A stretch of DNA of 64,000 bases from an uncultured delta proteobacterium. GTDB lineage: Bacteria; Myxococcota; Myxococcia; Myxococcales; Myxococcaceae. Each line of letters opens with the position of its first letter. The stretch's first letter is position 1. This document shows positions 32,073 to 53,422 of this stretch, piece after piece. The notes beneath the pieces are model-generated. The model saw only the letters and a list, made by a program, of their open reading frames with translations, had not been told where the DNA came from and searched no databases. The position numbers and the translations under genes were made by a program. The stretch lies in assembly GCA_963771175.1 (NCBI GenBank), contig CAVYSY010000044.1:128001-192000 (forward strand), in the 5' to 3' direction.

Positions 32073-32300
32073 CACTCAAGCGTACTCCGCGACCTTTGGG
32101 ACATGCCTCAACGCGCCAGGCCCTGCGGGAGTTGCGCGAGCAGTACCGTGCTTTCGTCTCGACATTCCGAGAAGCCGCAGCGCGCTGGCGGCAGGGGGAC
32201 TTCTCGGCCCGCCTCCCCCTCTACGCCTTCCCGCCGCGCACCTTGCCCGGTCACGTTGCTCGAGTTCTTTGACACCATTCCCGACACCATTCCCGAGACC
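32073..32300 (+). mobile_element. 3' fragment and right end of the RAYT-like element
   Basis: LKRTPRPLGHASTRQ...VARVL* nearly identical to 48565-48762, then GACACCATTCCC twice. Confidence 0.9.
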
Positions 32301-32489
32301 GCCGCCCATCCAACTCCTCCTCGCCCCGCCGGAAGGTGCGCTCGGCCCCACCCCATACGCAACTCCTTGAAAACGCGCGCACGCATTCCCGGCCCGATTG
32401 AACGCCATACATTTCCGGTGCCAGCCATCGCATATCTGGATTCGCACAGCCGGAGGCGATGGCGGCGTAGCTTCACCGGGCACACCCAC

Positions 32490-32620
32490 CATGGAGGTAG
32501 CGACCCTCCACCAGGAGCGCCGCGGCACCGATGGCAGCCCCCCCGCGTCCATGCGAAGCTGCGCGCACGGGGCCGTCGCATCTCCGAGAAGCGCGTCGCT
32601 CGCCTGATGCGGCAGGGGGC
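32490..32620 (+). mobile_element. IS3-family transposase (OrfB HTH) remnant
   Basis: EVATLHQERRGTDGSP / RVHAKLRARGRRISEKRVARLMRQ resembles the YGSPRV..L...G..VS.KRVARLMR motif. Confidence 0.65.
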
Positions 32621-32752
32621 CGGCAGCACGCGGAAGGCGCCCGGAATAAATACGTTATGCCGGATTAAAGGCACCTCCAATGGGCTAGATAAACCAGTTT
32701 ACCGGATTAAAAAGCGCTGCTGGCGCGATTTAAATCCGTTATAAAGGATTAT

Positions 32753-34039
32753 ATGGAGCTCCATCTCCAGGCGCTGATCGACGGGTCGTGGCAGCGGGCA
32801 GCGCTGCTTGAGTTCCCTACGGTCAGGGAGGATCGACGCGGAGGATGCACCTTCGAGTACGAGCACGAGTACCTGCTTCGGTGGATCGCCGACCCGCCGC
32901 CGCTTGCGGCGGTAAGTCTCAATCTACCGGTCGAGTTCGGCCCCAAGGTCTGGCGCCGTTGGCCGGCGTTCCTCGATGACCTGCGACCGATGGGGAGTGC
33001 CCGTGGCTGGTGGCTGCGGCGACTGGACCTCGCGGATGAGGCGGCGAGTGACTTCGAAATCCTGCGGAGTGGCACGATTGCGCCGGTCGGCAATCTTCGA
33101 ATCGAGGAGTCGGTTCCCGCGAAGAAGGAACCTCCCAAGCGGTTCCCTCGCCAGGTCGTCATCGACCGCGAGAACGCCTTCATCGAGTACGCCGCCAAGG
33201 CCGGCGCGCAGGTCGGAGGCGCGACAGGTGCCGGCGGCGATTCGCCGAAGCTCCTGCTCCGCTGCGACGCCGCGGAGCAGGTGTGGATCGACGTCTGGCA
33301 GGATGACCCCGCCTGTCCAGATCGGCATTACCTCGTCAAGTTCGCGCGCAGCCGCAGCGAACGCGACCGAAACATCCTTCGGTCGGAGTACGTGTATTAC
33401 AAAGCGCTCGCAGAGCTCGGAGTCGAAACCATTGCGCAAGAAGGGCTCGCGCTTCACGAAGGCCCCTCGGGCCCGAGCCTCTGGCTTCCCCGCTTTGACG
33501 TCGCGCGCCGAGACGGCCGCGAAATCCGGTACGGACTCGAGTCCCTCTACTCGCTGCTCAAGGCTGAGCCAGGCTCTTTCCAGAAGCATCAAGCGGCATT
33601 GAGTGCACTGAAAGACGTCGTTCCCGCGACGGTTTGGCCGACGGTGCGCCTCGAGTACCTGAAGCGCGACCTGCTGAATCTGGTGTTCGGCAACTCGGAC
33701 AACCACTGCAGGAACATCGCCGTGCTCAAGACGGACAGTACCGTCCGCCTCGCGCCCATCTTCGACTTCGCGCCGATGAGGATGGACCTCGAAGGAATCA
33801 CCCGCACCACGACGTGGGAAGGGTACGAAGCCGGCGGAGATGTCGACTGGGATGGGCTCCTTCGAAGCTTCGGCCCAGATGAGACGTCGTTGCGCGAGGG
33901 CCTCCACGACCTCGCTTTGCGCCTTCGCAATCTCCGCGAGCTCCTCGCGAACCTCAGGCTGCCGGATGAAACGCTGAATTTCGCGGGGCTGGACTTCCGC
34001 AGCATCGAGAAGCGCCTCCGCACGTGGAGTCTCCTATGA
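32753..34039 (+). CDS. HipA family kinase toxin
   Basis: HipA N-terminal VSLNLP, GATGAGGDSPKLL, YLVKF, LWLPRFD, GNSDNHCRN, LAPIFDFAP. Confidence 0.88.
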   Translation: MELHLQALIDGSWQRAALLEFPTVREDRRGGCTFEYEHEYLLRWIADPPPLAAVSLNLPVEFGPKVWRRWPAFLDDLRPMGSARGWWLRRLDLADEAASDFEILRSGTIAPVGNLRIEESVPAKKEPPKRFPRQVVIDRENAFIEYAAKAGAQVGGATGAGGDSPKLLLRCDAAEQVWIDVWQDDPACPDRHYLVKFARSRSERDRNILRSEYVYYKALAELGVETIAQEGLALHEGPSGPSLWLPRFDVARRDGREIRYGLESLYSLLKAEPGSFQKHQAALSALKDVVPATVWPTVRLEYLKRDLLNLVFGNSDNHCRNIAVLKTDSTVRLAPIFDFAPMRMDLEGITRTTTWEGYEAGGDVDWDGLLRSFGPDETSLREGLHDLALRLRNLRELLANLRLPDETLNFAGLDFRSIEKRLRTWSLL

Positions 34040-34428
34040 AGCGCGCCGACGTCGCCCGATTGACTGCGCTCGAACGCAAGGCGCTGCTGGAAGAGCTCGC
34101 TGCTATGGTCGCCACCGGAGAGTTCGGCCTCGGAGACGCCTCGCGCATCCTCCGCAGCACGATGCTGGGGATGGACCGGAAGACCTTCGCACAAGCCGTG
34201 AGGCTCTCCACCAGCGTCGTAGCGACGCTCGAGGACGATCCGAACGCGAACCCGACGCTCGAAACGCTCAACAAGGTCTTCGCGCCGTTCGGCGGAAAGG
34301 TCGCGTTGTCGTTTCCCCGCCTCGAAGAGCCACCGCCGCCCGACGATGCAGAGAGGCAGCGGCGAGAGATGCTCCGCGCCGCGCTCGCGAAGAGCAGGCG
34401 GCAGCGGCGGCGCTCGACAGAGTCGTAA
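34036..34428 (+). CDS. XRE-type HTH protein, putative antitoxin
   Basis: ATGA overlap with hipA; LGMDRKTFAQAVRLS...LE...ANPTLETLNKV. Confidence 0.8.
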   Translation: MKRADVARLTALERKALLEELAAMVATGEFGLGDASRILRSTMLGMDRKTFAQAVRLSTSVVATLEDDPNANPTLETLNKVFAPFGGKVALSFPRLEEPPPPDDAERQRREMLRAALAKSRRQRRRSTES

Positions 34429-34458
34429 GACCAGTCACGGCTCCGCTCATCACGGCCC

Positions 34459-34518
34459 GGGAAGGGAAGGGTGTCAAGGGAAGGGTGTCAAGGGAAGGGT
34501 GTCAGACACTTTGTACGG
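34459..34518 (+). repeat. RAYT-associated REP-like repeat (3 tandem GGGAAGGGTGTC, then AGACACTTTGTACGG)
   Basis: Read directly; same motif as the 45020 and 47300 arrays. Confidence 0.9.
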
Positions 34519-34802
34519 CGCGTCGTCATCCAGGGCTTCAGCGGAGAGTTCCTCGGGGAGTACGAAGTGGACCCCGTGTTCCAGGAGGACATCCGCATCC
34601 TCCCGTCACCGTGAGGGCTCCGCGAAGGGACATGTAACCGCGCACCGTCCTCATCACCGACGACCACGCCCTGGTGGCCCCGTCAACGTTCCCGTCCATA
34701 GGAAGCACGCGGCGGGTGCCAATGAGCTTCGGAATGCTCGACCAAATTCGGGAACCTTTGGCTCCTCCCGGTGTCTCTGCGGCGACACTCGAGAGGGGGA
34801 GC

Positions 34803-37076
34803 ATGGCCATCACACCGGTTCGCCATCCGTCAGGACCCATTTTTCTAGTCGCACTCATCATGGGACTCGCCGCACGTGCGGCTCCCACGGCCGAGGGCAC
34901 GCCGGAGCGCGTGGAGGCCACTCCCGATGCGCGGCTCGCGGCGCTCTGTCGCGTCTGGGGCGCGGTGGAGCACTTCCATCCGGCCTTGCCCTCTCGGGAC
35001 ATCGACTGGGACGCGGCGCTGGTGGAGACGGCGCCCCGGGTGATGGAGGCCCGAAACCCCGAAGCCCTCTCCGATACCCTCCAGGGGATGCTCGGCAGGC
35101 TCGGGGACCCTGTGACGCGGGTCGCCCGGCAGGCACCGGCCGCCCCCGCTCCGAGCGCGCAGAGCACGCCCCTCTCTCGGCAGGTGGGGGAGGTGCTCGC
35201 GGTGGACCTCGACCGCCGCTTCGGGAACTTCCAGGAGCTCTACATGGCGGTGTCCTCGCTGGGCCCCGAGCTCGCGAAGGCCCGCCGCGTCGTCGTGGAC
35301 CTCCGAGCCAGTGGCGCCGACGAGGCCATCTGGATGGACCAGGCCCTGGGTTTCCTCGCGGGCGCGCTGCCCTCTGAACCGGTGACCGGCCCGGGTGAGC
35401 GGTACCTCCAGCACTCAGGCTACCGGATACAATTCGGCGCCACCTCGGGTGGCTACGGCACCACGATGGACCTGAAGCTCGCCGAGGGCTTCGCCTCCGC
35501 GCCCGGTGCCCCCCAGCGCTCCGTGGCCTTCCTCGTCAACGCGCGCACTCCGCTCGTCCCCCTGCTGCTGGCCATGGTGGGCTCCTCCTCCCGCACCTTC
35601 CTCGTCGCGCAGGGCGCGCTCGACGAGAGCTCCGCCGTCAAGACGATGGAGTTGCCCCTCGCCGGTGGCCACCGCGCCGTCGTGCGCACCTCCGAGCTCG
35701 TCTTCCCCGAGGGCTCGCAAGGCCTGCGCGCGGATGTCACCGTGCCCGCGAGTGCCGACGAGGGAGAGCTGGGCCCCGCCTTCCAGGCCGCGCTGAAGCT
35801 CGTCCGCACGGGCAAGGCGAAGACCCCCGCGCGCCATGCCGCACAGCGGGCCGGATTGCCCACGTGGCACGCGGAGGAGACCTACGCGGAGCAGGAGTAC
35901 CCCTCCCCCGGCCTCAGGACCCTGGCCGTCTGCCGCTTCTGGAACGTCATGCACTACTTCCACCCGGACCCGAAGGCGCTCGGCGACTGGGACGCGGTGC
36001 TGCCCGAGTTCCTCCGCAAGGCTCGCGAGGCCGCGGATGCCCGCGCATACGCGCTCACGCTCTATGAGCTGTCCGCCCGCGTCCATGACGGCCACATCTT
36101 CCTGGCCGAGCGCGGCACCGTCTTCCGCACGCTGGGCGAGGCGACCGCCCCCATCCTCCCGCGCTACGTGGAGGGCCGCCCCCTGATGACGGAGCTCCTC
36201 GATGTCAACGTGACCCGTGAGGCCGGGCTCGTTGTCGGGGACGAATTGCTCACCGTGGATGGACAGCCCGTGGAGGAGCGGGCCGCTTTCCTCCGGCGCC
36301 ACCTCGCGGCCTCGACGCCCGCCGCCCTCTCGTTGAAGGTGGCGGAGATGCTGCTCGCCGGGCCGGATGGCTCGCAGGTCTCGTTGCGCGTCAGGTCCGT
36401 GGATGGCGGGCAGAAGGAGGTGAAGCTGCTCCGCTCCCGCGCCTTCCTCGCGCCCTTCCGGCAGCCCTCCGCCGAGGGCGAGCCCTACCGGACGCTCAAG
36501 GGCAACCTCGGCTATGTCGATCTGCGGCTGCTCCGGGTGGAGCAGATCGACTCGATGCTGGAGGCCCTGCAGGGGACTCGCGGCATCATCTTCGACATGC
36601 GCGGCCAGCCCCAGAGCACGGCGTGGGAGCTGGCGCGCCGCCTCAACGTGAAGGGCACCGAGCACGCGGCGGTGGTTGCCCGGCCCCTGGTGTCCTCCGG
36701 CCAGCGCCGGGAACTGCGGTTCTCCGACACGGAGCTCTCCCGAGCCCAATCCCCTCGCTACACCGGCCGTACCGTGATGCTCGTGGACGAGCGTGCCTCC
36801 AGCCAGGCCGAGTACACCGCCATGATGCTCCAGGCCGCCGCGGGCACCCGGCTCGTGGGAGCGCCCACCGCGGGTGCCGTGGGAGACACCACCAACGTGT
36901 GCCTGCCTGGGGCCGTCTGCGTCCTCTTCACGGGCCAGCTCCTGCTCTACCCGGATGGCCGTCCGGTGCAGGGCGTGGGCGTCACTCCAGACGTGGAGGT
37001 ACGGCCCACCGTGCAGGGAATCCTCGCGGGACGAGACGAGGTCCTCGAGCGGGCGATCTCAACGCTTCGCGAGTGA
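34803..37076 (+). CDS. S41 family peptidase with PDZ domain, secreted
   Basis: Signal peptide; WGAVEHFHP, LGYVDL, IIFDMRG, ASSQAEY, GVTPDVEV. Confidence 0.88.
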   Translation: MAITPVRHPSGPIFLVALIMGLAARAAPTAEGTPERVEATPDARLAALCRVWGAVEHFHPALPSRDIDWDAALVETAPRVMEARNPEALSDTLQGMLGRLGDPVTRVARQAPAAPAPSAQSTPLSRQVGEVLAVDLDRRFGNFQELYMAVSSLGPELAKARRVVVDLRASGADEAIWMDQALGFLAGALPSEPVTGPGERYLQHSGYRIQFGATSGGYGTTMDLKLAEGFASAPGAPQRSVAFLVNARTPLVPLLLAMVGSSSRTFLVAQGALDESSAVKTMELPLAGGHRAVVRTSELVFPEGSQGLRADVTVPASADEGELGPAFQAALKLVRTGKAKTPARHAAQRAGLPTWHAEETYAEQEYPSPGLRTLAVCRFWNVMHYFHPDPKALGDWDAVLPEFLRKAREAADARAYALTLYELSARVHDGHIFLAERGTVFRTLGEATAPILPRYVEGRPLMTELLDVNVTREAGLVVGDELLTVDGQPVEERAAFLRRHLAASTPAALSLKVAEMLLAGPDGSQVSLRVRSVDGGQKEVKLLRSRAFLAPFRQPSAEGEPYRTLKGNLGYVDLRLLRVEQIDSMLEALQGTRGIIFDMRGQPQSTAWELARRLNVKGTEHAAVVARPLVSSGQRRELRFSDTELSRAQSPRYTGRTVMLVDERASSQAEYTAMMLQAAAGTRLVGAPTAGAVGDTTNVCLPGAVCVLFTGQLLLYPDGRPVQGVGVTPDVEVRPTVQGILAGRDEVLERAISTLRE

Positions 37077-37204
37077 GACGCGATGTACCGGGGCCCTGGA
37101 CGTGGTGACAGCGACGTGCCCGCGGTGCGGGATTTCAGGAAGGCTTTGGGCCCACGAATCGCGCGCTGACCGGCTCTGGCGGTCGAGCAGGTGTTCCGGC
37201 ACCC

Positions 37205-37282
37205 CGAAAAGGTGTCCCGAAAAGGTGTCAGACACTTCGTCTCGGCCCCCCTCAACAGGGCTCCCATTCGTCTTATGCTTCG
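37205..37282 (+). mobile_element. Variant REP pair (GAAAAGGTGTC x2, AGACACTT) fused to a putative IS91-like element end
   Basis: 37245-37282 matches 53385-53422 at 37 of 38 nt. Confidence 0.7.
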
Positions 37283-37287
37283 CGCGC

Positions 37288-38205
37288 ATGAGACTCGTGC
37301 TCCTGGCGTCGCTCGGTTTGCTCCTCGGCTGTGCCGTTCCCCACAAGAACGCGCGGTACTCGAACTCCGCACAGGAGCAGGGAGACGCGCGGGTCGGTCA
37401 AATCCTCTCGTCCGAGTGGTCGTTCGAGACGTCCTCCTTCTGGCTCGAGGGGCCCGAGGGGCTCATCTTGATCGACACGCAGTTCCTTCCGTCCGCGTTG
37501 CGGAAAGGGATTGCCTACGCCGAGGGGGCCACGGGCAAGAAGGTCAAGCTGGCCATCGTCCTGCACCCGAACCCCGACCGTTTCAACGGAACGGCCTGGC
37601 TCGAGAAGCGCGGAGTCCCGGTCGTCACCTCCGAGCAGGTCCGCGAGCGCATTCCCGAGGTCCACGACAGATGGGCTCCCGCCCTCTTCGAGAAGTACCA
37701 GGCGGGCGGGTACCCCTGGAGCGTCGTGCTCCCCGACAGCTTCGGAAGCAGCACGACGGAGCTGAGCGCGGGGGGCCTCACCGTGAAGGCGCACGTGCTT
37801 GGCGGCGGGTGCAGCCCGGCCCATGTGGTCGTCGAGTGGGAAGGGCATCTCTTCGTCGGGGACCTGGTGGCGAATGGCACGCACAGCTGGTTCGAGAATG
37901 GCCGGACCGACGCGTGGCTCGAGCGCCTGGACGAGCTGCGCGCGTTGCACCCGAAGTGGATCCACCCGGGGCGCGGCTTCACGGACGGGCCCGAGCTGCT
38001 CGACCGGCAGACGGACTACGTCCACACCGTGGTCGAAGCGGTCGCGGCGGAGCACCCACGGGGCCGGCCCACTCCGGAAGCGTTCGCACGCATCACGGAG
38101 CGGGTGAACCAGCGCTACCCCGACCACCACTACCCCGCCTTTCTGCCGATGGTCCTGCGCGCGGAGTGGGCGCGCCAGGCCGCCCTCCTCGCCGATTCAC
38201 GGTAG
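37288..38205 (+). CDS. MBL-fold metallo-hydrolase lipoprotein
   Basis: Lipobox LLGC; LIDTQF, HPNPDRFNG (degenerate HxHxDH), FVGDL, HPGRG. Confidence 0.85.
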   Translation: MRLVLLASLGLLLGCAVPHKNARYSNSAQEQGDARVGQILSSEWSFETSSFWLEGPEGLILIDTQFLPSALRKGIAYAEGATGKKVKLAIVLHPNPDRFNGTAWLEKRGVPVVTSEQVRERIPEVHDRWAPALFEKYQAGGYPWSVVLPDSFGSSTTELSAGGLTVKAHVLGGGCSPAHVVVEWEGHLFVGDLVANGTHSWFENGRTDAWLERLDELRALHPKWIHPGRGFTDGPELLDRQTDYVHTVVEAVAAEHPRGRPTPEAFARITERVNQRYPDHHYPAFLPMVLRAEWARQAALLADSR

Positions 38206-38230
38206 GCACCGGCGGGCTGCCATGAGCCCG

Positions 38231-38252
38231 AGGGAAGGTGTCAAAGAACTCG
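38231..38252 (+). repeat. Isolated left-end/REP copy GGGAAGGTGTCAAAGAACTCG
   Basis: Matches the RAYT element left end at 47687. Confidence 0.8.
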
Positions 38253-38314
38253 TTCAGCGGCCGATGACGTGACGCACACGCTCGACCCCTCACACAGGCG
38301 TGCGCGTCCGCTTC

Positions 38315-39127
38315 CTACTCCCCGAGCGATTGGGGCGGCGGTTTGGCGCTGAAGACGGGCGCGTAGCACTTGCCCTGGTGCTCGAAGAGCCCATCCGGGC
38401 ACGGGGCCTTGAGGGCGTGCTCCATCCAGCAGCCGCCCACGAGTTCCACGTCGACGTATTTCCTGCAAGGGGGGCGCTTTTGTCCCTTGAAGGCCTCGCG
38501 CGGCAGAGAACGGGCGAGTGCGGGCACTCCCGCGTCCGGGGTATCCATGGCGCTGGAGAATGAGTACGGATTCGCGTCCGCCGTGAGCACCTCGTCGCTC
38601 GTGAGCACCTCATCGCTCATGAGCGCGGGCGGTGTGATTGCCAGGGACTCCGGGCCGCTCGGCGGTGGAGCCTCGAAGGCCAGATGCACCAGCGCGATGA
38701 GCAGGACGCCCACTGTGGCGGCGCTCACCACGCCCAACCCCAGGTGCCACCGGAGGCGGGGCGCGTGGGAGTCGGATACGGCGCGGACCATGCGCCGCAC
38801 CTCCTCGAGCACACCGTCCAACGTGAGCAGCAGCGACTCCGCCGACTGCCTGTCCTGGGCCCTGGCCCAGTCGGTGTGCTCCACCTCCATGGCGGAGTAG
38901 CCTCGAGAGGCCCAGGAGCCGAGGAACACCCGCCAGTGCTTCCCTGGTGCCTTTGCCTCTTGGGCGGCGTGCTTGCGCACCAGGGCCGTGGCCCCGCTCG
39001 TCTCGTGCGTGGCCAGATAGAGTTCCTCCTGGAGGTCAGTGGACTGCTGTACCTGCTCCTGAATCAGGTACGGCCCCAAGCGTTCCGGTTCCTCCCCGCT
39101 CGTTTCGAGCTTCTTCTCCTCGTCCAT
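38315..39127 (-). CDS. Myxobacterial hypothetical membrane protein with a kinase-associated Cys-rich C-terminus
   Basis: GAGGAG SD; TM segment; FKGQKRPPC...GGCW...APCPDGLFEHQGKCYAP. Confidence 0.75.
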   Translation of the reverse strand: MDEEKKLETSGEEPERLGPYLIQEQVQQSTDLQEELYLATHETSGATALVRKHAAQEAKAPGKHWRVFLGSWASRGYSAMEVEHTDWARAQDRQSAESLLLTLDGVLEEVRRMVRAVSDSHAPRLRWHLGLGVVSAATVGVLLIALVHLAFEAPPPSGPESLAITPPALMSDEVLTSDEVLTADANPYSFSSAMDTPDAGVPALARSLPREAFKGQKRPPCRKYVDVELVGGCWMEHALKAPCPDGLFEHQGKCYAPVFSAKPPPQSLGE

Positions 39128-39305
39128 GCGTGCTCCTCACGAGCCTCCGCGCCTGCTGGAGGCCAGAGGCGGGTGTTCGCATGAACCACGCCCGACATCC
39201 AGGAGGTACTCGGTTCGTCAGGTGGGGGCCTACTCACAGGTGCCCTGGCGCGTTCACCTCCGCGCTGGGACACAGTTGGGCGCCCCACCTCGCGGCCTCC
39301 TTCGG

Positions 39306-39832
39306 CGGGAAGGGTGTCCAGCAAGGGGGGCCGGGAAGGGTGTCAGACACTTTGTACGGCCTTTGCAATGGCCGGTTCTCGATACCCATCGGTGAGAAAC
39401 CTACCCGCCGTTGGGCCCTCCCGGGCCGTGTGGCTCGCCACTGCTGGGGCCGTCCTGAACGTGCAGTCGTTCCCGCTGCGGTTCCTGTCCGGGGCTGCAG
39501 AAAGGGTCGGAAGAGGAGAGACACGGCGGTGCGAGCACTCTGGGGAGGTGGAGGCAGGCGCGCAGGGGAAGCCTGTCATGGGAGCGCGAGCGGTGCAGAG
39601 CAGCCCAGCACGGCCCGAGCGTCTCAAGCGTACTCCGCGGACCTTTGGGACATGCCTCAACGCGCCAGGCCCTGCGGGAGTTGCGCGAGCAGTACCGTGC
39701 TTTCGTCTCGACATTCCGAGAAGCCGCAGCGCGCTGGCGGCGGGGGACTTCTCGGCCCGCTTCCCCCTCTACTCCTTCCCGCCGCGCACCTTGCCCGGTC
39801 ACGTTGCTCGCGTTCTTTGACACCATTCCCGG
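39306..39832 (+). mobile_element. Degenerate RAYT derivative: REP pair (39306-39359), ~150 bp unrelated DNA, deleted 3' transposase fragment and right end
   Basis: 39510-39820 aligns to 48437-48762 with deletions; ends TTTGACACCATTCCCGG. Confidence 0.85.
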
Positions 39833-40078
39833 CGGTCACACGTGCGCCCCCTGACGTGTCAGTGACGTGTCAGCGACACGTCAGGAGGCACCCCTGAGTC
39901 GCCCGCTCTCCTCGTGCCCAAGGGGAAGCGCACGCGTTCCGCTTGGAACCGGTTTCAGTCGGATCCTCGGGCAGACCTTCGCACGAGGAGAGAGCTGCCG
40001 GATCCCTACCGAGATCGGCCCTGGCTGGCCGCGTTTGCACCAGGCCCCGCGCAACTCGCTACCCGAGGAGATGGAGAG

Positions 40079-41100: not shown

Positions 41101-41437
41101 TGCTGCCCGCGGCCTGAGCAGACCGCCAGGGGACCGGCCCCGGGGCTCCAGGTTCTTCGGAACCTGGGGCCTTTTGGTTCCCTCCGGACCGGGCTGCACA
41201 CCCTGGGGTGCATCAGGAGCACCCCATATGACCACCGTGAAAGTCGGTTCCTCCAAGCAGTGGTAGACGACCTACGCCGGTATGAGCTCGGAATAGGGGA
41301 CAACGACCCTCTCCCACCTCCAGAGCATCCGTATCCGGAGTACGTGGCGGAGCTCGAGAGGGCGAAGATGCACCTCGCAAACAATCCCAGGCTGGCGCCC
41401 GCGGTCGAGCTTCTCAAGCGATTCGTCAGTTTGGGAG

Positions 41438-41787
41438 CCCGAGATGGTGTCAAAGGACTCGAACCGCAGGACTCGAGCCAGAACGAGACTCGGCGTGGAC
41501 GGGTGAACCTACCGGCCCCCAGGTCATTCTGAGGACTTGGGGTTGGCCCACAGGGAGCATCCGGCCTGGCGGCGCGTACGCAGGGGATGGGCTGGCCGTT
41601 GGGGCATGCCTCCGCGCGCCAGTCGCTGAGGGAGTTGCGCGAGCAGTACCGTGCCTTCGTCGCGGCGTTCCAAGAGGCGGCGGCTCGGTGGAGGCGGGGG
41701 GACTTCTCGGCGAGCTTTCCTCTCTACTCCTTCCCGCCGCGTGTCGTGCCGGGTCGTGTCGCGCGAGTCCTTTGACACCCTCTCGGG
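41438..41787 (+). mobile_element. Non-autonomous miniature element of a second RAYT subfamily
   Basis: 24-bp inverted ends (23/24 match); internal mini-ORF 41587-41775 joins the transposase start MGWPL to its C-terminus. Confidence 0.85.
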
Positions 41788-41829
41788 GGTGGGGAGGGCG
41801 ACGCGCCACACCGCCTGAGCTCGTCAATC

Positions 41830-42426
41830 CTAGATGGGCACGCTCTCGGGGCGACTGATGAAAAGGGCATCGAAGAGGGTGGTGTGGGGCGGTTCCTTGG
41901 GCTCGACGATGAGCGGGACGGGAGTGCGGGCGAGCTCGCGAGGAAGGGCGGTCACCCCGAACGTGGCCTCGAGCTTCCTGGCGACGACCTCGGCGGGAGC
42001 CTGCATCTCGGGTGGAAGCGACTCCAGGAAGACCCGCTCTTCAACGCGCTGCCTGCCGCTGTAGTGGAGGTGCAAGCCATAGATGGCGTAGACAGGCGCC
42101 AGGATGCTGACACAGCCGACGACGCACCAGACAACTGGCTGCGGTGGTTTCTCCACTTTCGGGTACACGGCACAACGAAAAGACGCATTACACGTGGACG
42201 TGAAGTTCCCGACATTCAGTCCTGGCAGCGCTGCCTGGAGGTCATCCACGAACGCGTCCCACTGGTCCATCTTCTTGCGCTCTTGCACCCACAGCGAGAG
42301 GAAGCGCTCGGCCTCGGGGCTGTTCTCGCGCCTGAGATCGAAGTCCTTGTCCGCACGGTAGTAGTTGTGGACGAGGGCAAGCAAGGACTCCGCCGAGAGG
42401 GGAATAGGGCTAGAATTCAATGACAT
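41830..42426 (-). CDS. Hypothetical protein
   Basis: 198-aa ORF overlapping the end of the upstream lipoprotein gene. Confidence 0.7.
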   Translation of the reverse strand: MSLNSSPIPLSAESLLALVHNYYRADKDFDLRRENSPEAERFLSLWVQERKKMDQWDAFVDDLQAALPGLNVGNFTSTCNASFRCAVYPKVEKPPQPVVWCVVGCVSILAPVYAIYGLHLHYSGRQRVEERVFLESLPPEMQAPAEVVARKLEATFGVTALPRELARTPVPLIVEPKEPPHTTLFDALFISRPESVPI

Positions 42427-42889
42427 GGGGCGTTGTTTCCTTGTCGCACAGGGTCGTGACTTGGGAGCCGAGTACGGCACGATTCAGAATCGTGTGAAAC
42501 GTACTCTTGAAGTCCTGACACACGAGGCCGGGGCTCGGAGAATTGGGGAAGCCAAGCACGATTCTTCCGGCCTCGTTGGCGCAATCAGCGGCGATGCGCT
42601 GCGCAAGTGCTGTGGAGATGGACCCATCCGTTTGGGTCGCCAGGGGCATCTCGACTCCAAACTTGCAGAAGAAGGTGTTCCAGGTGGCGGTGTTGACGAT
42701 GGGGACGTGCAGGCATGCGGCACGCCATCCGCCCGAGCCTGATTTGGGTTTCTTGACGACCGTGACGAACTGAAAATGGTGGGGCTGGTAGTGGTTGATG
42801 CTGCACCCCGCGAGGAGTGGAAGCATGACGACGAACAGGTTCCGGAGCGGGAATGCACGTCTTCGCGCGGGTTGCCCTGAAATGCTCAC
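42410..42889 (-). CDS. Hypothetical Cys-rich lipoprotein
   Basis: Lipobox LLAGC; lower GC than the backbone; start uncertain. Confidence 0.65.
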   Translation of the reverse strand: MSISGQPARRRAFPLRNLFVVMLPLLAGCSINHYQPHHFQFVTVVKKPKSGSGGWRAACLHVPIVNTATWNTFFCKFGVEMPLATQTDGSISTALAQRIAADCANEAGRIVLGFPNSPSPGLVCQDFKSTFHTILNRAVLGSQVTTLCDKETTPHVIEF

Positions 42890-43037
42890 GGTGTCACCTC
42901 GGCCCAGCGGGGATGGTTGCCCGCGAGGGTAGCAACGTTCATGCGACCCGCGCCCCCGTCTTCCGCCGACTGCGGGCGCGCGTTCTGGAGCGGACGGTCA
43001 CGGTATGGCCCAACGGGGATGTGGAGGTGGACTCGAA

Positions 43038-43158
43038 CCCGAGACGGTGTCAAAGGACTCGAACCGCAGGACTCGAGCCAGAACGAGACTCCTCGCGCCA
43101 GGCACTGCGGGAGTTGCGCGAGCAGTACCGTGACTTCGTCGCGGCGTTCCAAGAGGCG
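43038..43158 (+). mobile_element. Truncated subfamily-B RAYT derivative (left end fused to RQALRELREQY fragment)
   Basis: 43046-43091 identical to 41446-41491. Confidence 0.85.
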
Positions 43159-43224
43159 CGACGAGCTTTCCTCAACCTCGCGTCTCCGGTGAAGAATCGG
43201 GCGTCCGCTCACATCGGAGACGAC

Positions 43225-44973
43225 ATGCTGATGTTCTCGTTGGTGGCCGTGGTGCTCGCGGCCGAGCCGCCCCCCACCTCCACGCCGCTCTACCCGCCGG
43301 CGGAGGCCATCGCCGACGCGCTCTCCGGGCCGCTGGTCCCGATGGTCGGGGATACTGGCTTCGGTCCCAACGAGCGGCTCCCGGACTGCTTCTACCGAAA
43401 CGACCGTGTCATCGTCATCAACCGCTACTGCGGCAAGCGGGAGATCAACACCACCGGCATCCAGATCATGCACCCCGAGCGGGGCGTCCTCTACTTCTAC
43501 GCGGAGGCGAGCGCGCCGATCAGCTCGCTCACCCGCGAGGACTACGAGCAGTGGCGCATCGAGGTGCGCGACCCGCTGCCCGGACTCCGCGTCGACCAGT
43601 CGCTGGCGGAAGTGCTGCAGTGGATGCACCGGAGAACGCGCGAGGCGCAGCAGGTGTGTTGGACCGGCTTCGGCTCGCCCGGCGGCGTCCCCACCGGGTG
43701 CCACTACAAGACGCCCGAGCTCAAGCAGGCCTGGATGGACGCTCATGACGCCCTGCTCAAGAGCCCGCCCCCTGGCTGGTACGAGCTCGTCCGGGAGATG
43801 CGCGGACTGATCGGCAAGAAGCCGCCGCCGGTGAAGGCCCCGCCCGCCGCCGACACCGCCGGACCCGGGCCCGCGCGCATCGTCGTCCGGGTGTTCGAGT
43901 ACTTCACGCACCAGCCGGTGGTGGGCGCCCGCGTCCTCTTCCGCGAGCTGGACGGCGCCGGGGAGCGCGTGGGAGTGACCGACGCCAGCGGCAAGGTGGC
44001 GGTGCGGACGCCGAGCACCCGCTTCGAGCCCGTGAAGGTCGAGCTCGAGGGGCTGCTCCCGCCCGAGGAGCTGCGGCCCATCTGGAGCGCGTTCAAGACG
44101 CTCGACCCGACGCGCCACGCGCAGGGGAAGGACGAGGTCCGCTGGGAGCTTCCGGTCGTCCGCCGGGCGTGGCTGGAAGCGAACATGAAGGTCCGGACCC
44201 GGGAGCAGGCCGACGCCGTGGCCGCCGACTGGGGGAGCGAGTGCGGGCCGGGCGGTCCCAGCGCGGTCGAGTTCCGCGAGGGCGCCTGGCACTACACCTT
44301 CTCGTGCCTGGAGATGTACGTCGACCCGTGGAAGGGGAAGGGCGGCGGGCGCAAGCTCCAGCCGGCTCCTCCCAGCGCGGCCCCGCTCTACCCGCCGGCG
44401 GAGGCGCTGGCGGACGCGGTGTCCGGTCCGCTGCGGCATGTGGGGACCACCCTCTGGTACGGCCGCTACGGGATTCCTTCGTGCATCTACCGGAACGAGA
44501 AGGTCTTCGTCATCAACTCGTACTGCACGCTGAAGGAGCTCAACCGCACCGGGGTCATCGTCATCCACCCCGAGCGCGGCGTGGTGCAGCTCAAGGCGCG
44601 CGGCGTCCAGGACAAGCCGGTCAGCACGCTGAGGCGCGCGCAGTACGCCGAGTGGGGGTTCTCGTCGACGGATGGCCAGCGCGGCCTCACCCTCGATGCG
44701 AGCGCGGACGCGCTGGTCGCCTGGGAGGAGCGGCGCCACCGCTACTACCGAAATCCCGGCTGCGGGGCGGGGCAGGCCGGCGCGTCCTCCAAGATGCGCG
44801 GCAAGTGCGAGGAGAAGACGCCAGGGTTCGAGGCCTGGTGGCGGGGCGTGTATCCCCCCATTCTCGAGGCGCCGCCCGAGAGCTGGTACGCGCTCGTGAA
44901 GGACCTGCGCCAGCGCGCGCGCAAGGACGGGAAGCCGGACCCGCGGCTGGCGAAGGGCGCCCCGGAGGAGTGA
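43225..44973 (+). CDS. Secreted hypothetical protein with duplicated ~190-aa domain around a central beta domain
   Basis: GGAG SD; signal peptide; PLYPPAEA(I/L)ADA(L/V)SGPL...C.YRN..V.VIN.YC...E.N.TG...HPERGV occurs twice. Confidence 0.75.
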   Translation: MLMFSLVAVVLAAEPPPTSTPLYPPAEAIADALSGPLVPMVGDTGFGPNERLPDCFYRNDRVIVINRYCGKREINTTGIQIMHPERGVLYFYAEASAPISSLTREDYEQWRIEVRDPLPGLRVDQSLAEVLQWMHRRTREAQQVCWTGFGSPGGVPTGCHYKTPELKQAWMDAHDALLKSPPPGWYELVREMRGLIGKKPPPVKAPPAADTAGPGPARIVVRVFEYFTHQPVVGARVLFRELDGAGERVGVTDASGKVAVRTPSTRFEPVKVELEGLLPPEELRPIWSAFKTLDPTRHAQGKDEVRWELPVVRRAWLEANMKVRTREQADAVAADWGSECGPGGPSAVEFREGAWHYTFSCLEMYVDPWKGKGGGRKLQPAPPSAAPLYPPAEALADAVSGPLRHVGTTLWYGRYGIPSCIYRNEKVFVINSYCTLKELNRTGVIVIHPERGVVQLKARGVQDKPVSTLRRAQYAEWGFSSTDGQRGLTLDASADALVAWEERRHRYYRNPGCGAGQAGASSKMRGKCEEKTPGFEAWWRGVYPPILEAPPESWYALVKDLRQRARKDGKPDPRLAKGAPEE

Positions 44974-45019
44974 CCGGGGCTTTCTTTGCTGGCATCGCAC
45001 CGTGCGCGGCGAGGTCGCC

Positions 45020-45350
45020 CGGGAAGGGTGTCAGACACTTTGTACCCTCCGGGAAGGGTGTCGCGGGAAGGGTGTCAGACACTTTGTACGGCCTCCACGC
45101 CGGGAAGGGTGTCCGCGGGAAGGGTGTCGGGAAGGGTGTCAGACACTTTGTACGGGCCACCCTCTCGGCGACGTGTCCGACTTGATGCCCTTGCCCCGGA
45201 AGTGGTGTCAAAGAACTCGACGCGAGGCTGGAACGCGAACGGTCCACGGCCTGGACGGGTGAAACTCCCAGGAAGGGTGTCAGACACTTTGTACGGGCCA
45301 CCCTCTCGGCCCGGGAAGGGTGTCGGGAAGGGTGTCAGACACTTTGCACG
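45020..45350 (+). repeat. Nested REP-like array (9 GGAAGGGTGTC units) including an orphan element left end
   Basis: Counted by eye; 45130-45265 nearly identical to 47615-47747. Confidence 0.92.
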
Positions 45351-45636
45351 GGCGTGTACCTCGAGGGGCCGCGCGGCCTCTCCACCGACCGGGCGCCCTG
45401 CTCGGGCGGCCCCTGTCAGCGGCCCTCCTCGGCCCCTCCGCTCCAGCCCTCACCCTCAACACGGCCTCTATTCCGCCTATGCGCTCTGTGACCCCTGCCC
45501 GGGCGACAGTGCGCGCATCGAACGTGGAGGGGCTGTTCTCATGGGTTGGCATGCCCGAGCGAGACTCGCCTACCGCTGGTGTTCCTTTGCCGGCGCGTTG
45601 CCGGGTGGGAAGCGTGCATGGGATGCTCATTCGAGA

Positions 45637-47274
45637 ATGAGCGCCCACCGTCTCCTCACCTGCCTGCTGCTGGCCTTGCCGCTGCTCGCCTGCCAGGCGC
45701 ATCAGGCTCCACTCGCTCCGGGCGACTCCCTGCCAGTCGAAAGGTTCAATCAGCTCATCAACGAGAGGCCCCGTTGTGCCTCGGTGGTGGAGTGCACCTC
45801 CATTGCCAGCCGCGAGCCGGCGCTGTTCTCGTTCATCCTGGACCTGACGCTACCCGAGCTGCCGCTCCCCAGACTGCTGGATGGGTTCGAGTACCAGCAT
45901 GAACGCCCGGCGGTGACGCGCATCGTCCATGCGCAAGTGTGGACGCTCCTGGAGTCCTCCCTGAAGGAGGCCGCCGCGCATCCCTCCCGGCAGGTCGTGC
46001 CGTCCGAGCTGATGGAGCGCATGTTCGTGCTCGCTGAGCAGGAGCTGCGATCTCCGGGACCGGAGCGGTTCCCGGTGATGAAGTTGCTGAAGGCGCTGGC
46101 GGAGTTCCCCCAAGGTCGCGCGTGGCTCGTGCAGTGGTGCTTCTCGGGGGAGGATGCGGTGGCGGTCGCCGCCAGTCTCGTCCTCGTGGAGCTCGAGCCC
46201 GAGCCCACCACGGCGAAGGACTCCGCGGTCTCCTCCCGAGCCATCGAGGTCATCTGGCGGTGCTTCCTCGTGCAGCGGCCCCAGGGCTCCTGTCTGCCGG
46301 AGCTGGCACCGCCCCATCCGTTCTCGGAGCGCATCACCCAGGCCGTCCTGGCCCTGCCCGTGTTCCACTCCCGGCTCATCGCACTCATCGAGACGGACGC
46401 CGAGCAGGGCTCCCTGTACCCGGGGGACCTCGACCTTTACGAGGTGCTCGTGCGCGCCCCGCTGCTCGAGGAGAAGCTCCTGGCCTGGTCCGAGCACCCC
46501 TCTCCCACGGTCGCCGGTCTCGCGAGTGACAGGGTCGTCCGGCGGCGTCGGGACCCCGGCGGGAGCGAGTGGCCGCGCGTCCGGCGTTTCTTGCTGCGGT
46601 ACGCGGCGAGCGGTAGGGCTTTCGTCTCCCTGGCCACGGCCAGGCTGCTCGGTCACGAGGGCGAGTTGTCCGCGGAGGAGGTGGCGCAGGTGATCGCCCT
46701 TTCCCGCTCTTCTTCGAAGGACGTCCGTCTGGCGAGCATTCATCTCCTGGTGCGGCTGACGCGGGAGCATGGCTCGGCCCGCCTGGCTGTTCTCGAGGTG
46801 CTCCAGCGCGATGAGGTGGGGCTGGTGACGGAGGCGATTCGGCGCCTCGTCGAGCTGTCCTCGTCTCGCGAGACGCACGCCCCGGACTGGTACTCGCGTA
46901 CCGTGGCCGAGTGGTTCCTGAAGGTCCCGGCCCATCGGTTCCGCGAAGAGGCCTGGCGGGTCCCCCTCTGGTGGGCACTCGAGCAAGTCGAGGTCGTGTT
47001 CCGGCGGCGCTTCAGGCCCTTTGTGAAGACGGAGCCGGTTCTCGCTATCTGCGGCGGCGATCTCGGCGTGAATGAGCTGGAGGAACAGGCACGGAAGAAT
47101 CTGCTCGCATTCGGGGTCGAACAGACGCCGTCCCCCTCCGCGTGGGAACTGGCGGAGCGCCGTAGGAGCGACGAGCGGGCCGAGGCGCGGGAAGTCGACA
47201 CGCTGCTGCGCGCGCGCGAGCGGTTCTCGCGGTTCCATGATTGGCGAGAGGGGCGAGGCTCCGGCTGGCCGTGA
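45637..47274 (+). CDS. Helical-repeat (HEAT-like) lipoprotein
   Basis: Lipobox LLAC; Leu-rich amphipathic repeats (SKDVRLASIHLL). Confidence 0.65.
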   Translation: MSAHRLLTCLLLALPLLACQAHQAPLAPGDSLPVERFNQLINERPRCASVVECTSIASREPALFSFILDLTLPELPLPRLLDGFEYQHERPAVTRIVHAQVWTLLESSLKEAAAHPSRQVVPSELMERMFVLAEQELRSPGPERFPVMKLLKALAEFPQGRAWLVQWCFSGEDAVAVAASLVLVELEPEPTTAKDSAVSSRAIEVIWRCFLVQRPQGSCLPELAPPHPFSERITQAVLALPVFHSRLIALIETDAEQGSLYPGDLDLYEVLVRAPLLEEKLLAWSEHPSPTVAGLASDRVVRRRRDPGGSEWPRVRRFLLRYAASGRAFVSLATARLLGHEGELSAEEVAQVIALSRSSSKDVRLASIHLLVRLTREHGSARLAVLEVLQRDEVGLVTEAIRRLVELSSSRETHAPDWYSRTVAEWFLKVPAHRFREEAWRVPLWWALEQVEVVFRRRFRPFVKTEPVLAICGGDLGVNELEEQARKNLLAFGVEQTPSPSAWELAERRRSDERAEAREVDTLLRARERFSRFHDWREGRGSGWP

Positions 47275-47298
47275 CGAGTGGCACTCCGCGGGCGGGTC

Positions 47299-47685
47299 CG
47301 GGAAGGGTGCCGGGAAGGGTGCCCGGGAAGGGTGCCAGACACTTTGTACGGGGACACTTTGTACGGGCCACCCTCTCGGCGACGTGTCCTCGGCGACGTG
47401 TCCGACTTGATGCCCTTGCCCCCCGGGAAGGGTGTCCGGGAAGGGTGTCAGACACTTTGTACTCCGGGAAGGGTGTCCGGGAAGGGTGTCTCCGGGAAGG
47501 GTGTCAGACACTTTGTACGGGGAAGGGTGTCGGGGAAGGGTGTCAGACACTTTGTACGGGGATACTTTGTACGGGCCACCCTCTCGGCGACGTGTCCTCG
47601 GCGACGTGTCCCCGGGAAGGGTGTCAGACACTTTGTACGGGCCACCCTCTCGGCGACGTGTCCGACTTGATGCCCTTGCCGGAAG
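47299..47685 (+). repeat. Nested REP-like array (11 GGAAGGGTG(T/C)C units) upstream of the transposase
   Basis: Counted by eye. Confidence 0.92.
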
Positions 47686-48767
47686 TGGTGTCAAAGAACT
47701 CGACGCGAGGCTGGAGCGCGAACGGTCCACGGCCTGGACGGGTGAAACACCCTGTCTGCTCGTCTTTCCAAGCACTTGAGGGCTGGCCCACGGGGTGCAT
47801 TCGGCCTCGCACCGTACGAGGGGGAGGGGATGGGCTGGCCGTTGAGGATGTTCCAGGAGGAGGGCTACTACTTCGTCACGTCCAGGTGCTTCCAGGGACG
47901 GCTGCTGCTGCGTCCCAGCGCAGAGGTGAACGAGGTGGTGGGAGGCGTGCTGGCGCGAGCCGTCCAGCAGAGCGCCGGCACCGTGCGACTGCACGCCTTC
48001 ACCTTCGCCTCCAACCATTTCCACCTGCTGGTGTGGGCTCGGGGAGCAGCTCTCGCCTCCTTCATGCAGTACCTGCGCGCCAACCTCTCCAAGAAGGTAG
48101 GGAGGCTGGTGGACTGGAGGGGTGGTTTCTGGGAGCGGCGCTACTCAGCGGAGCCGGTGTTGGACGACACGGCGTTGGTGGGGCGACTGCGCTACATCCT
48201 CGCCCATGGAGTGAAAGAGGGCCTGGTGGAGAGAAGCACCGAGTGGCCGGGCCTCACGAGCCTGCCGCAGTTGCTGGGACCGGCGCGGCGGCTGTTCCGA
48301 TGGTTCAACTGGACGAAGCGCTGGGGCGAACGGAGGCGCCAGGACATGGCCGCGGCGCAGGGGCGTTTCGCGCAGGAGTGGGCCGAGCCGGTGGAGTTGG
48401 AGGTGGCGCCGCTGCCTTGCTGGAAGAGCTCGAGCGAAGAGGAGAGACAGCGCGCGGTGCGAGCACTGCTGCGGGAGGTGGAGGCCGAGGCCCGTGCGCA
48501 GGGGAAGCCTGTCATGGGAGCGCGAGCGGTGCAGGAGCAGCACCCGCATACCCGGCCCGAGCGTCTCAAGCGTACTCCGCGACCTTTGGGACATGCATCC
48601 ACGCGCCAGGCCCTGCGGGAGTTGCGCGAGCAGTACCGTGCTTTCGTCTCGACATTCCGAGAAGCCGCAGCGCGCTGGCGGCAGGGGGACTTCTCGGCCC
48701 GCTTCCCCCTCTACTCCTTCCCGCCGCGCACCTTGCCCGGTCACGTTGCTCGAGTTCTTTGACACCA
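47686..48767 (+). mobile_element. RAYT-like element bounded by 18-bp perfect inverted repeats TGGTGTCAAAGAACTCGA
   Basis: Left 47686-47703, right 48750-48767; followed by two further GACACCATTCCCGG copies up to ~48803. Confidence 0.85.
47830..48762 (+). CDS. REP-associated tyrosine transposase-like Y1 HUH protein (intact, 310 aa)
   Basis: YYFVTSRC, SNHFHLLV (HUH), FWERRYSAEPV, LRYILAHGVKEGLV (catalytic Tyr); GGAGG SD. Confidence 0.9.
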   Translation: MGWPLRMFQEEGYYFVTSRCFQGRLLLRPSAEVNEVVGGVLARAVQQSAGTVRLHAFTFASNHFHLLVWARGAALASFMQYLRANLSKKVGRLVDWRGGFWERRYSAEPVLDDTALVGRLRYILAHGVKEGLVERSTEWPGLTSLPQLLGPARRLFRWFNWTKRWGERRRQDMAAAQGRFAQEWAEPVELEVAPLPCWKSSSEEERQRAVRALLREVEAEARAQGKPVMGARAVQEQHPHTRPERLKRTPRPLGHASTRQALRELREQYRAFVSTFREAAARWRQGDFSARFPLYSFPPRTLPGHVARVL

Positions 48768-48891
48768 TTCCCGGGACACCATTCCCGGCGACACCATTCC
48801 CGGGCCAACGCCAGTCATTCGTGAGCCGGTCACGGAGTATTTTGTCAGACATCGAGGCAGCGCGGCTCACTCGGGAGTGAGCCGTGCCACG

Positions 48892-49984: not shown

Positions 49985-50092
49985 GCTCGGCGTTGCAAGT
50001 GACGCCGCACTTCCACTCGCTGGTACCGGACGGCGTCTTCGTGCCGGGGGAGGGCGGCGTGCGCTTCGAGGCGTTGCTTCCGCCCACGCAAG
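49985..50092 (+). mobile_element. IS91-like (Y2 HUH) transposase fragment, HUH region
   Basis: SALQVTPHFHSLVPDGVFVP. Confidence 0.7.
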
Positions 50093-50130
50093 CCCGGGAA
50101 GTCAGAGGACTCGTTCCCGGGAAGGGCGCG

Positions 50131-52908: not shown

Positions 52909-53174
52909 CAATGCGACTGTACGGGAGTGAGAGTCGGGTCCGCAGGGAGGCCCTCGCTGCCACTGCTCGAAGCTCAACATCCCGCCTGTCACTCCTTCAG
53001 GTTCGGGAGTGGCCCCGTGCAGTCATCGCCACCACGGAGAGGCATGACCTCGTGAGTTCTCCACCCGGACGGTACTTCCGCCGTGGTATGGAGCGACCGC
53101 ATCGGGCTTCCAGTCACGCCACTCGGGCGTGGTAGGGAAGAGCGACGAGGAGCAGCGCATGACGGCCACGAAGA

Positions 53175-53422
53175 AGCTCCCCCAAGCAGGTGCGGAGGAG
53201 GCGAGCGTGGCGTCCCAGGCAGCGGTCAGCAAGGAGCCGATGACGGAGAGGACGTCGGGAGTGGACCAGGCAGAACTGCGGAGGAGGACGTTCGACTTCG
53301 ACGTATTCGCCAGCGTGAGGTGTGGAGGCAGGCGGCGGGTCATAGCCCGTACGGCCCCCGTCAACAGCCCTCCTCGGCCCTTCTGCCCCCCTCAACAGGG
53401 CCCCCATTCGTCTTATGCTTCG
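53175..53422 (+). mobile_element. IS91-like transposase C-terminal remnant plus putative element end
   Basis: VDQAELRRRTFDFDVFASVRCGGRRRVIA (cf. WA.LL.RTF..DV..C..CGGR) followed by the conserved CCCTCAACAGGG...TCTTATGC motif. Confidence 0.7.

Follow-up and report, generated by a model that had tools for sequence, protein, structure and literature searches.

We analysed a 64,000-nucleotide window of myxobacterial DNA (contig C44, positions 128001-192000, of genome G000) that carries, at 32075-48805, an island in which accessory genes are interspersed with the ends and remnants of a transposon. The genome is a draft assembly, 81.7% complete, of 9.83 Mb in 58 contigs with about 69% G+C, and homologues of the window's proteins carry the source names Archangium or Cystobacter. 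Within the island we found one intact gene for a 310-residue Y1/HUH enzyme, at least four decayed or internally deleted copies of the element and 12 solo left-end units. Taken with the genome-wide and cross-species comparisons below, they reveal a multicopy Y1 family with local amplification and decay, arrays running in one direction, and block differences between relatives that are bounded by element ends. We lean, with modest confidence, towards the view that the island is a self-nesting array of transposons and miniature inverted-repeat transposable elements, or MITEs, of a TIRtron-type Y1 family, used as a recombination scaffold for gene blocks; the repeats probably help to shuffle genes. 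The genes parB and parA lie at 13.5-15.6 kb of the window, mnmG at 20.6-21.8 kb, mnmE at 61.4-63.1 kb and dnaA about 5 kb past its right end, and the locus is therefore close to the replication origin, with the element nest roughly 20-36 kb from dnaA.

The units that punctuate the island share a simple layout. A solo left-end unit consists of one to three tandem 12-mers, GGGAAGGGTGTC, followed by AGACACTTTGTACGG (core, AGACACTTTGTAC). The left end of the complete element reads GGAAGTGGTGTCAAAGAACTCGA, and its right end is the reverse complement of that sequence plus one to three GACACCATTCCC units. In the intact element (47677-48805, + strand), which encloses the open reading frame (ORF) at 47830-48762 and carries three GACACCATTCCC units, the left (47679-47703) and right (48750-48774) inverted repeats are 25 nt long and 92% identical; 45192-45220 is likewise an inverted repeat of 48750-48778 (29 nt, 90%). 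Matches to GGGAAGGGTGTC with at most one mismatch were counted over the whole window and compared with 100 shuffles: there are 31, against 0.47 expected, and none of the 100 shuffles reaches that number. All 31 fall within 32271-48801, 25 on the + strand as left ends and six on the - strand as right ends. Across the whole 9.83-Mb genome, every one of the 12 matches to the 20-nt core (at most two mismatches) falls inside this 17-kb island, as do 21 of the 23 exact 12-mers, in line with an earlier note on this DNA, which had named even spread as a sign against its view; the exact core had 0 matches in JGI metagenome contigs.

That note had placed repeats at ten positions between genes, and sequence comparison shows an element end, unit or copy at each. 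It had also seen several of them begin soon after a stop codon, and the distances measured from the stops at 34428, 38205, 44973 and 47274 are 31, 21-27, about 45 and 25 bp. Co-orientation of the repeats stands for about ten of 11 island elements; the exception is the end at 38232, which belongs to a 270-aa gene unit on the - strand. The proposal that the repeats are repetitive extragenic palindromic (REP) hairpins had to be abandoned, because folding of the island units is no stronger than that of shuffled sequence (z from -0.28 to +0.29; the common MITE described below has z -1.4). They are instead the inverted-repeat ends of a multicopy element resembling the REP-associated tyrosine transposases (RAYTs). 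At least two subfamilies of the element are nested here. Two other interpretations were rejected: the 6-7 nt that vary among the tandem units represent subfamily versions of a single 13-mer, not target duplications, and the sequence at 38232 is the right-end-type repeat of the 270-aa unit, not the left end of a Y1 copy.

From left to right (+ strand unless stated), the island opens with a 3' stump of the Y1 element (32075-32295) that comprises the last ~65 codons, the right inverted-repeat end and two 12-mers. It is 97.3% identical over 223 bp to 48565-48787 and, by tblastn, 96.9% identical over residues 246-310 of the Y1 protein. The following 377 nt (32296-32671) have a partial translation that includes ISEKRVARLMRQ, a stretch we take to be typical of IS3-family transposases. 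Next comes a fixed-end block (32670-34456) of hipA (32753-34039) and a helix-turn-helix antitoxin-like gene (34024-34428), with matches to HipA_C and Couple_hipA, and then a solo left-end unit (34459-34525; three copies of GGGAAGGGTGTC, then AGACACTTTGTAC). An S41 peptidase gene with a PDZ domain (34674-37076, by Pfam) is followed by a diverged left-end unit (37202-37253; CCCGAAAAGGTGTC twice, then AGACACTTCGTC) and a metallo-beta-lactamase-fold (MBL) gene (37288-38205; Lactamase_B, 43.7 bits), an assignment made before that holds only in this frame. The unit of the multicopy 270-aa gene (38226-39254, - strand; gene 38315-39127) carries a right-end-type inverted repeat at 38226-38259.

To its right lies a non-autonomous derivative of 534 bp (39299-39833) made of a left-end unit (39299-39362), the 3' 340 bp of the Y1 gene and a right end; its segment 39510-39832 is 93.5% identical to 48436-48774, the 3' part of the Y1 gene. 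Directly after that right end, 39830-39905 forms an inverted repeat of GACGTGTCAG-like words, with 37-nt arms that are 73% identical and 2 nt apart; related GACGTGTCC words occur in the repeat clusters at 45170 and 47380-47610. The gene for a secreted tandem-repeat protein (40100-41116), described earlier as a tandem-domain protein, is present and broken over three frames in the assembly, with an intact 340-aa homologue at another locus (L009) that aligns with pieces in three frames. The second subfamily is represented by an internally deleted copy of 350 bp (41435-41787) that retains left end, leader, first codons, last ~60 codons and right end, at 73.6% and 82% identity to the intact copy. 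Beyond it are two small genes (41830-42889, - strand), the second with a lipobox, so that the label of lipoprotein pair suits one ORF and not the other, and then a truncated second-subfamily copy (43035-43158) whose 57-bp left end is fused to a 70-bp 3' piece, 96% and 93% identical to 41435-41491 and 41610-41679, respectively.

The right part of the array holds a gene with an internal duplication and no assigned family (43222-44973), a cluster of five left-end units around a left-end stump of 45128-45269 (45007-45352), and a lipoprotein gene (45682-47274) that has the lipobox LLAC and no Pfam or NCBIfam match, which leaves its former description as HEAT-like without support. A second cluster of five left-end units (47299-47680) lies immediately 5' of the intact element. 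Two of the eight cargo units are on the - strand. A promoter-like motif, CCCTCAACAGGGC.CCCAT.CGTC.TATG, precedes the MBL gene (37249-37277), the lipoprotein gene (45453-45481) and, farther right, a glutathione S-transferase (GST) gene (53389-53417), and has 32 matches in the genome at up to seven mismatches. Its letters resemble a promoter of the sigma-70 type (TCAACA, about 17 nt, TATG/TATA); the gene blocks seem to bring their own promoters.

The enzyme at the end of the array is, as the earlier note had it, an intact HUH/Y1 protein. The 310-aa product matches the NCBIfam family REP_Tyr_transpos over profile positions 4-144 of 146 (E 3e-14), with scores below the curated cut-offs (53 bits against 80; for Pfam Y1_Tnp, 21.3 against 23). 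Its HUH motif is N62-H63-F64-H65, and H63 and H65 are invariant across 27 aligned homologues. So is Y122, the putative catalytic tyrosine, which lies within the helix 113-124 of an AlphaFold model (pLDDT 83). A sequence search of the PDB gave no match; in a Foldseek search with the model, the PDB entry that matched best was 4ER8, the RAYT-REP complex of E. coli (E 1e-5, TM-score 0.62 on the target), with the ISDra2, IS200 and IS608 transposases next. These fold matches cover the first ~150 residues only, and the last ~160 form a confidently folded extension without a match. Homologues number in the hundreds, many of exactly 310 residues, with the source names transposase or RayT.

The gene is not a single resident of this island, as had been supposed. 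By tblastn the Y1 gene has matches on 15 contigs of the genome; two of the copies have no interruption, and another three span the full length but are divided between frames. Copies also occur in all 17 other genomes of the genus, several in each, at 78-83% identity. Identity to the intact copy of the island is 93-97% for the stumps there and about 83% for other copies in the genome. The terminal 12-13-mer comes in a variant of its own at each Y1 copy. The flavour of the island has 12 copies here, and any one of the 17 other genomes has 0-5. The inverted repeats make up a family that occurs as singles, dimers and groups, with tandem clusters of up to five or six units. Its common non-autonomous form genome-wide is a MITE of about 65 nt, (CSGSMAGGGTGTC)n-AGACGAYTCGTAGGGGGCGA-GGTGTC-GGAACGAGTCCTTTGACACC-(TTCCCGG GACACC)n, with 4-55 copies per genome across the genus and, in the MITE of the analysed genome, a GTAG word inside.

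Long arrays of this kind are not peculiar to the island. Two end motifs have 149 matches in the genome, and 93 of these fall in three stretches totalling about 80 kb (C49, C44:28-39 kb and the island), which bears out the prediction that the repeats are not spread evenly. On C49 (C49:1-38000; loci L013 and L014), 14 of 16 left-end loci are on the + strand, 13 of these 14 upstream of a Y1 copy, in a 35-kb array that ends at a frame-split Y1 copy (36775-37703); the genes between the repeats are unrelated and include a methyltransferase, a kinase, ApbE, BBE oxidases and PP2C. The methyltransferase gene there (1702-2565) has relatives 88-95% identical at unlinked places in many species. The complete relative G001 has an array (C1:1497000-1580200) in which 17 of 18 repeats share one direction over 83 kb while the genes are mixed, and a second (12737000-12752700) with eight of eight in one direction over 15 kb and no Y1 gene within the 32 kb examined (loci L018-L024 cover these two arrays).

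The 270-aa gene unit is itself multicopy. It is about 900 bp long and has no assigned family; by eye its product has a kinase-like N-terminal stretch, one membrane helix and a Cys-rich C-terminus. There are at least eight copies in the genome, with copies outside the island at C49:7342-8372, C49:51253-52166, C44:34676-35557, C30:24388-25344, C54:102675-103590, C28:46364-47260 and C9:45765-46581, and more than 100 matches across 18 genomes. More than 40 copies share a constant, sharp left boundary about 118 nt before the ATG, a right-end-type repeat follows 70-140 nt downstream in four of the eight copies in the analysed genome, and in at least four other genomes the match extends into an adjoining MITE. 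It gives the impression of being a mobile passenger of this family of transposons.

What could impose one direction on so many copies? The direction of neighbouring genes was rejected as a cause, because in G001 genes are mixed while 17 of 18 repeats are aligned. Replication-strand bias was rejected as well: among 44 left-end loci, with eight omitted for a skew of 0.01 or less, local GC skew agrees with repeat direction at 14 and opposes it at 22. We suggest instead that new copies land beside existing ends of the family, in a fixed direction. Such self-adjacent landing would account for the local pile-up, a common direction without a replication rule, the filling of gaps between genes, the tandem clusters and the nesting of two subfamilies.

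The comparison with other species shows where the island sits. In G015 and G016, both complete genomes, the gene for the M16 peptidase (28.4-31.5 kb of the window) is followed within 0.4 and 2.4 kb, respectively, by the homologue of the sequence at 54.8/55.5 kb; in G008 about 34 kb of different DNA occupies this place. None of these three corresponding loci has island repeats or a Y1 gene. Since the interval is absent from G015 and G016, the stretch from about 31.5 to 54.8 kb is a lineage-specific insertion of 23 kb at a variable spot, and the array makes up its left 17 kb. G015 has a 45-kb insertion elsewhere in the origin-proximal region (G015:C1:13161031-13206418, corresponding to window 59430-59720), and the interval from parAB to dnaA is a set of variable spots. 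The right part of the insertion contains repeats of other kinds: 49985-50093 and 53026-53340 recur in the same genome (5 and 18 BLAST matches) and dozens of times in relatives. The first of these has a weak match to Y2_Tnp (IS91-type) at E 0.079, below the cut-off, and a degenerate Y1-family end, GGGAAGTCAGAGGACTCGTTCC, lies at about 50090-50125. In the flanks, 23414-26113 and 54592-55776 encode a Uma2 endonuclease-like protein, an AbiEii-like AAA protein and an AHH nuclease-domain protein; these genes and hipA together hint that the region has to do with conflict or defence. Scans of 28-56 kb of the window gave 0 Rfam matches and 0 tRNA or transfer-messenger RNA genes.

This setting brings up the possibility that the repeats are passive decoration: an acquired, fast-changing island tolerates insertions, and a transposon saturates its gaps without playing any part in moving genes. 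The repeat flavour is young and private to the lineage and may therefore postdate the genes, the same site holds repeat-free DNA of such different lengths in the three genomes above, debris of other mobile elements is present in the insertion, and homologues of the cargo elsewhere are without repeats. Passive insertion would leave it unexplained that breakpoints in a close relative lie at element ends and not at random intergenic points, that direct repeats of element segments bracket single blocks, and that the copies run uniformly in a direction that neither gene direction nor GC skew accounts for. We consider this possibility unlikely, although not negligible.

The breakpoints come from public sequencing runs that share 21-49% of the 31-mers of 41.3-48.9 kb; four of them (X1-X4) were compared with the window over 31-51 kb, using contigs, not reads, matched at 90% likeness. 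In X1 the shared blocks are 99.4-99.9% identical. In X3, a run labelled as one organism with contig depth 30-44, the order of the same gene blocks differs, and the breakpoints coincide with element ends. One contig joins a right end (..41786) through 11 nt to the hipA block (32670-34456) and through 18 nt to a left end (43039..); in another the small-gene pair stands between a right end and the left end of 41439. A third crosses the site of the lipoprotein gene, passing from the duplicated-domain gene at 44974 to 47423 (the intervening letters are not known), and a fourth leads from a 5' piece of the Y1 gene to 37274, immediately 5' of the MBL gene, a position at which contig pieces of all four runs start. 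The earlier note had proposed to check whether differences in cargo have their boundaries at the repeats, and in X3 they do. Low contig depth in X1-X4 at 35.0-37.0, 39.7-41.0, 45.7-47.0 and 49.0-49.7 kb hints that the S41, tandem-domain, lipoprotein and WD40 genes are missing there; a gap in contigs is no proof, and this was not used.

Could the layout be an assembly artefact, a chimeric join of unlinked pieces at repeats? Assemblers do err at repeats, and frame breaks occur even in mnmG (window 20566-21763, - strand), whose matches are split over several frames with one TGA within a match, either through assembly indel errors or because the gene is broken. The frame breaks in mnmG make every pseudogene call in this genome less secure, those on the frame-split Y1 copies and on the tandem-repeat gene among them. 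Independent contigs, though, confirm the junction of the small-gene pair with a left end (X2 and X3), that of the duplicated-domain gene with its cluster (X2) and that of the MBL gene, element end and 270-aa gene (X3 and X4), and like arrays exist in complete single-contig genomes. A chimeric join is highly improbable.

Another explanation gives the enzyme the leading part. An enzyme of the TIRYT type would move blocks between tandem, same-direction ends as single-strand circles, cutting at the outer edges of one right end and the next left end, so that a circle is released and a joint of right end and left end is left behind. In reverse, a circle would insert at such a joint, and the blocks would behave as integron cassettes. 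Several observations speak for this cassette exchange. In X3 one right-end position (...GACACCCTCTCG) is directly followed by two different blocks, hipA starting at 32670 and, with 28 nt deleted, the small-gene pair at 41787. The ends of the hipA block (32670/32672 and 34445-34456) agree between the analysed genome, X3, G009 and G013. The 270-aa unit, with its sharp left boundary, downstream right-end-type repeats and matches running into a MITE, behaves as a fixed-end unit, blocks are more alike between species than core genes (90-97% against 78-87% identity), and by extension from the established IS200/IS605 mechanism the chemistry should in principle be symmetric. Against it, neither the circle nor the joint was observed, island units have no hairpin beyond that of shuffled sequence, many blocks are set off from the repeats by spacers of 30-380 nt, arrays occur without an intact enzyme nearby, and cargo homologues elsewhere are mostly without repeats. 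We judge this explanation, too, to be doubtful.

A further point against cutting at element edges comes from the direct repeats around single blocks. The lipoprotein block is bracketed by a 142-bp direct repeat (45128-45269 versus 47613-47752; 97% identical, with 68 bp identical throughout), and this duplication contains 74 nt of internal element leader. Homologous recombination is favoured for this block because a cut at the element edge does not explain the internal leader. The small-gene pair is bracketed by a 57-bp repeat (41435-41491 = 43035-43091) and a 70-bp repeat, and the island as a whole by 223-bp repeats at 97% identity (the 3' stump and the 3' end of the intact element). On the reading we lean towards, a recombination scaffold built by self-nesting copies, same-direction repeats would act as crossover points for gene blocks, mostly through the host's homologous recombination: a circle with one repeat and its cargo would loop out and re-enter at another repeat. 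The enzyme's own cutting and joining may assist: the two X3 blocks start at the same right-end position, and the strand-exchange chemistry should be symmetric in principle. As for the claim that the HUH enzyme moves the cargo, nothing shows it, and the clearest gain or loss (45682-47274) fits homologous recombination better. The locus would then be a recombination-prone array of transposons and MITEs rather than a dedicated integron-like capture site.

Several findings weigh against this scaffold reading. The idea of self-targeted insertion draws on layout only, with no target motif established. The right 6 kb of the insertion (WD40, M16 peptidase and GST genes) is equally mosaic with other repeats, which warns against tracing every reshuffling to the Y1 family. 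The joints in X3 rest on contigs matched at 90% likeness, and two of these joints have sides of only 30-36 nt. The hipA block in X3 abuts the right end of a different subfamily, where 377 nt intervene in the analysed genome, and so precise a new joint is not easily made by homologous recombination alone. Finally, strict copies of the repeat were found at only one of 12 loci with cargo homologues in other species, so cargo genes also move, or sit, without repeats.

Those cargo homologues sit singly at unlinked places in other species, and some are strikingly similar. The hipA block is 96.8% identical in G013 and 95.3% in G009, the duplicated-domain gene is 96.6% identical over 528 bp to G010, the S41 gene is 94% identical in G001, 90% in G003 and 86% in G015 (unlinked loci without repeats), and the small-gene pair is 90% identical in G001, 88% in G014 and 85% in G012. 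Core segments in these species are 78-87% identical, and syntenic flanks 71-87%. Blocks at 90-97% against a core at 78-87% indicate that species have recently exchanged single gene blocks. Native loci could be assigned for neither of two candidates. The S41 gene lies between conserved genes in G003 and G015, where the corresponding site of the analysed genome is empty, and G001 has it in a third context, so that the direction of transfer cannot be told; the MBL gene has a close homologue only in G015, and its native site is not definable.

Myxobacterial genomes are very large and plastic, and little is understood of how accessory genes travel singly within them. The locus described here gives a testable handle on the problem, as ends of a Y1 transposon mark the breakpoints of reshuffling and units with fixed ends are more alike between species than core genes. 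If the enzyme moves the blocks, the locus would represent a new cassette system that rests on the single-strand chemistry of HUH enzymes, and a second, mechanistically unrelated route to integron-like arrays, active in the large genomes of Archangium- and Cystobacter-type myxobacteria and moving promoter-bearing genes within a genome and between species. If host recombination does so, the locus would be a clear natural example of MITE arrays as a shuffling scaffold. A literature search, with subscription journals outside its reach, found no description of such arrays in myxobacteria. The enzyme class and inverted-repeat families are already published; the myxobacterial family with tandem terminal 12-13-mers, the long same-direction arrays in accessory DNA and the link to reshuffling of blocks look new.

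The island shares single features with several known systems. Translocatable units of IS26 are circles, carrying one copy and cargo, that enter next to another copy, and they rely on a DDE enzyme and whole insertion-sequence copies; the island likewise has cargo between same-direction copies, but with a Y1 enzyme and mostly end fragments. ISCR and IS91 elements encode Y2 rolling-circle HUH enzymes, are one-ended and have been proposed to pick up adjacent genes. An HUH enzyme and proposed gene capture are common to both, whereas the fold here is Y1. Elements of the IS200/IS605 family have subterminal hairpins and no inverted-repeat ends, and their direction follows the replication fork. The island resembles IS608 and ISDra2 in its Y1 HUH fold, in having no visible target duplication and in its non-autonomous deletion derivatives; it differs in its inverted-repeat ends and in that no replication-direction rule is seen.

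The view of the locus as an integron-like platform driven by an HUH enzyme survives in part. Gene-sized units with fixed ends, an enzyme gene at one end, and an order and content of blocks that vary between close relatives with ends at the sites, as in the X3 joints, are all integron-like. Genes in mixed direction, a promoter-like motif before at least two of them and arrays without the enzyme are not; no IntI-type recombinase was found among the island ORFs scanned, and for attC sites there is neither a folding signal nor an Rfam match at the island units. Classical RAYTs are single-copy genes that lie between hairpin REPs, repeats with hundreds of scattered copies. With REPtrons (PMC8266576) the island shares 4ER8 as the nearest solved fold, short non-autonomous repeats tied to a Y1 enzyme and the GTAG word. 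It departs from them in its multicopy gene, in its 12 local copies of one flavour and 4-55 copies per genome of the common form, and in having no significant hairpin.

The closest published class is that of the TIRtrons, in which a RAYT-like gene (TIRYT) is flanked by inverted repeats and not by REPs (Di Nocera et al. 2013, PMC3733652); in a later classification, subclass 2.1 takes in most TIRYTs and has NH[YF]H and W[EQ] motifs, C-terminal extensions and no REP (Quentin et al. 2018, PMC6006769). The accessible portions of these two papers name no myxobacterium. Measured against what they describe, the island differs in several respects: its gene is multicopy and decays like an insertion sequence, its outer 12-13 nt are tandemly repeated, its family forms same-direction arrays of tens of kilobases between accessory genes, and its tyrosine motif is YILAHG, not Y[IV]HLNP. 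The inverted repeats of the published class carry a GGGGWSAS motif; in the analysed genome, right-end units of the copies on C49, C28 and C44 contain GGGGACAC, and the window copy reads CGGGACAC. The likeness extends to a Y1 gene with inverted repeats, to repeats that occur as singles, dimers and groups, and to the NH[YF]H and W[EQ] motifs and long C-terminal extension of the island enzyme, and the locus extends this little-studied class to the Myxococcota.

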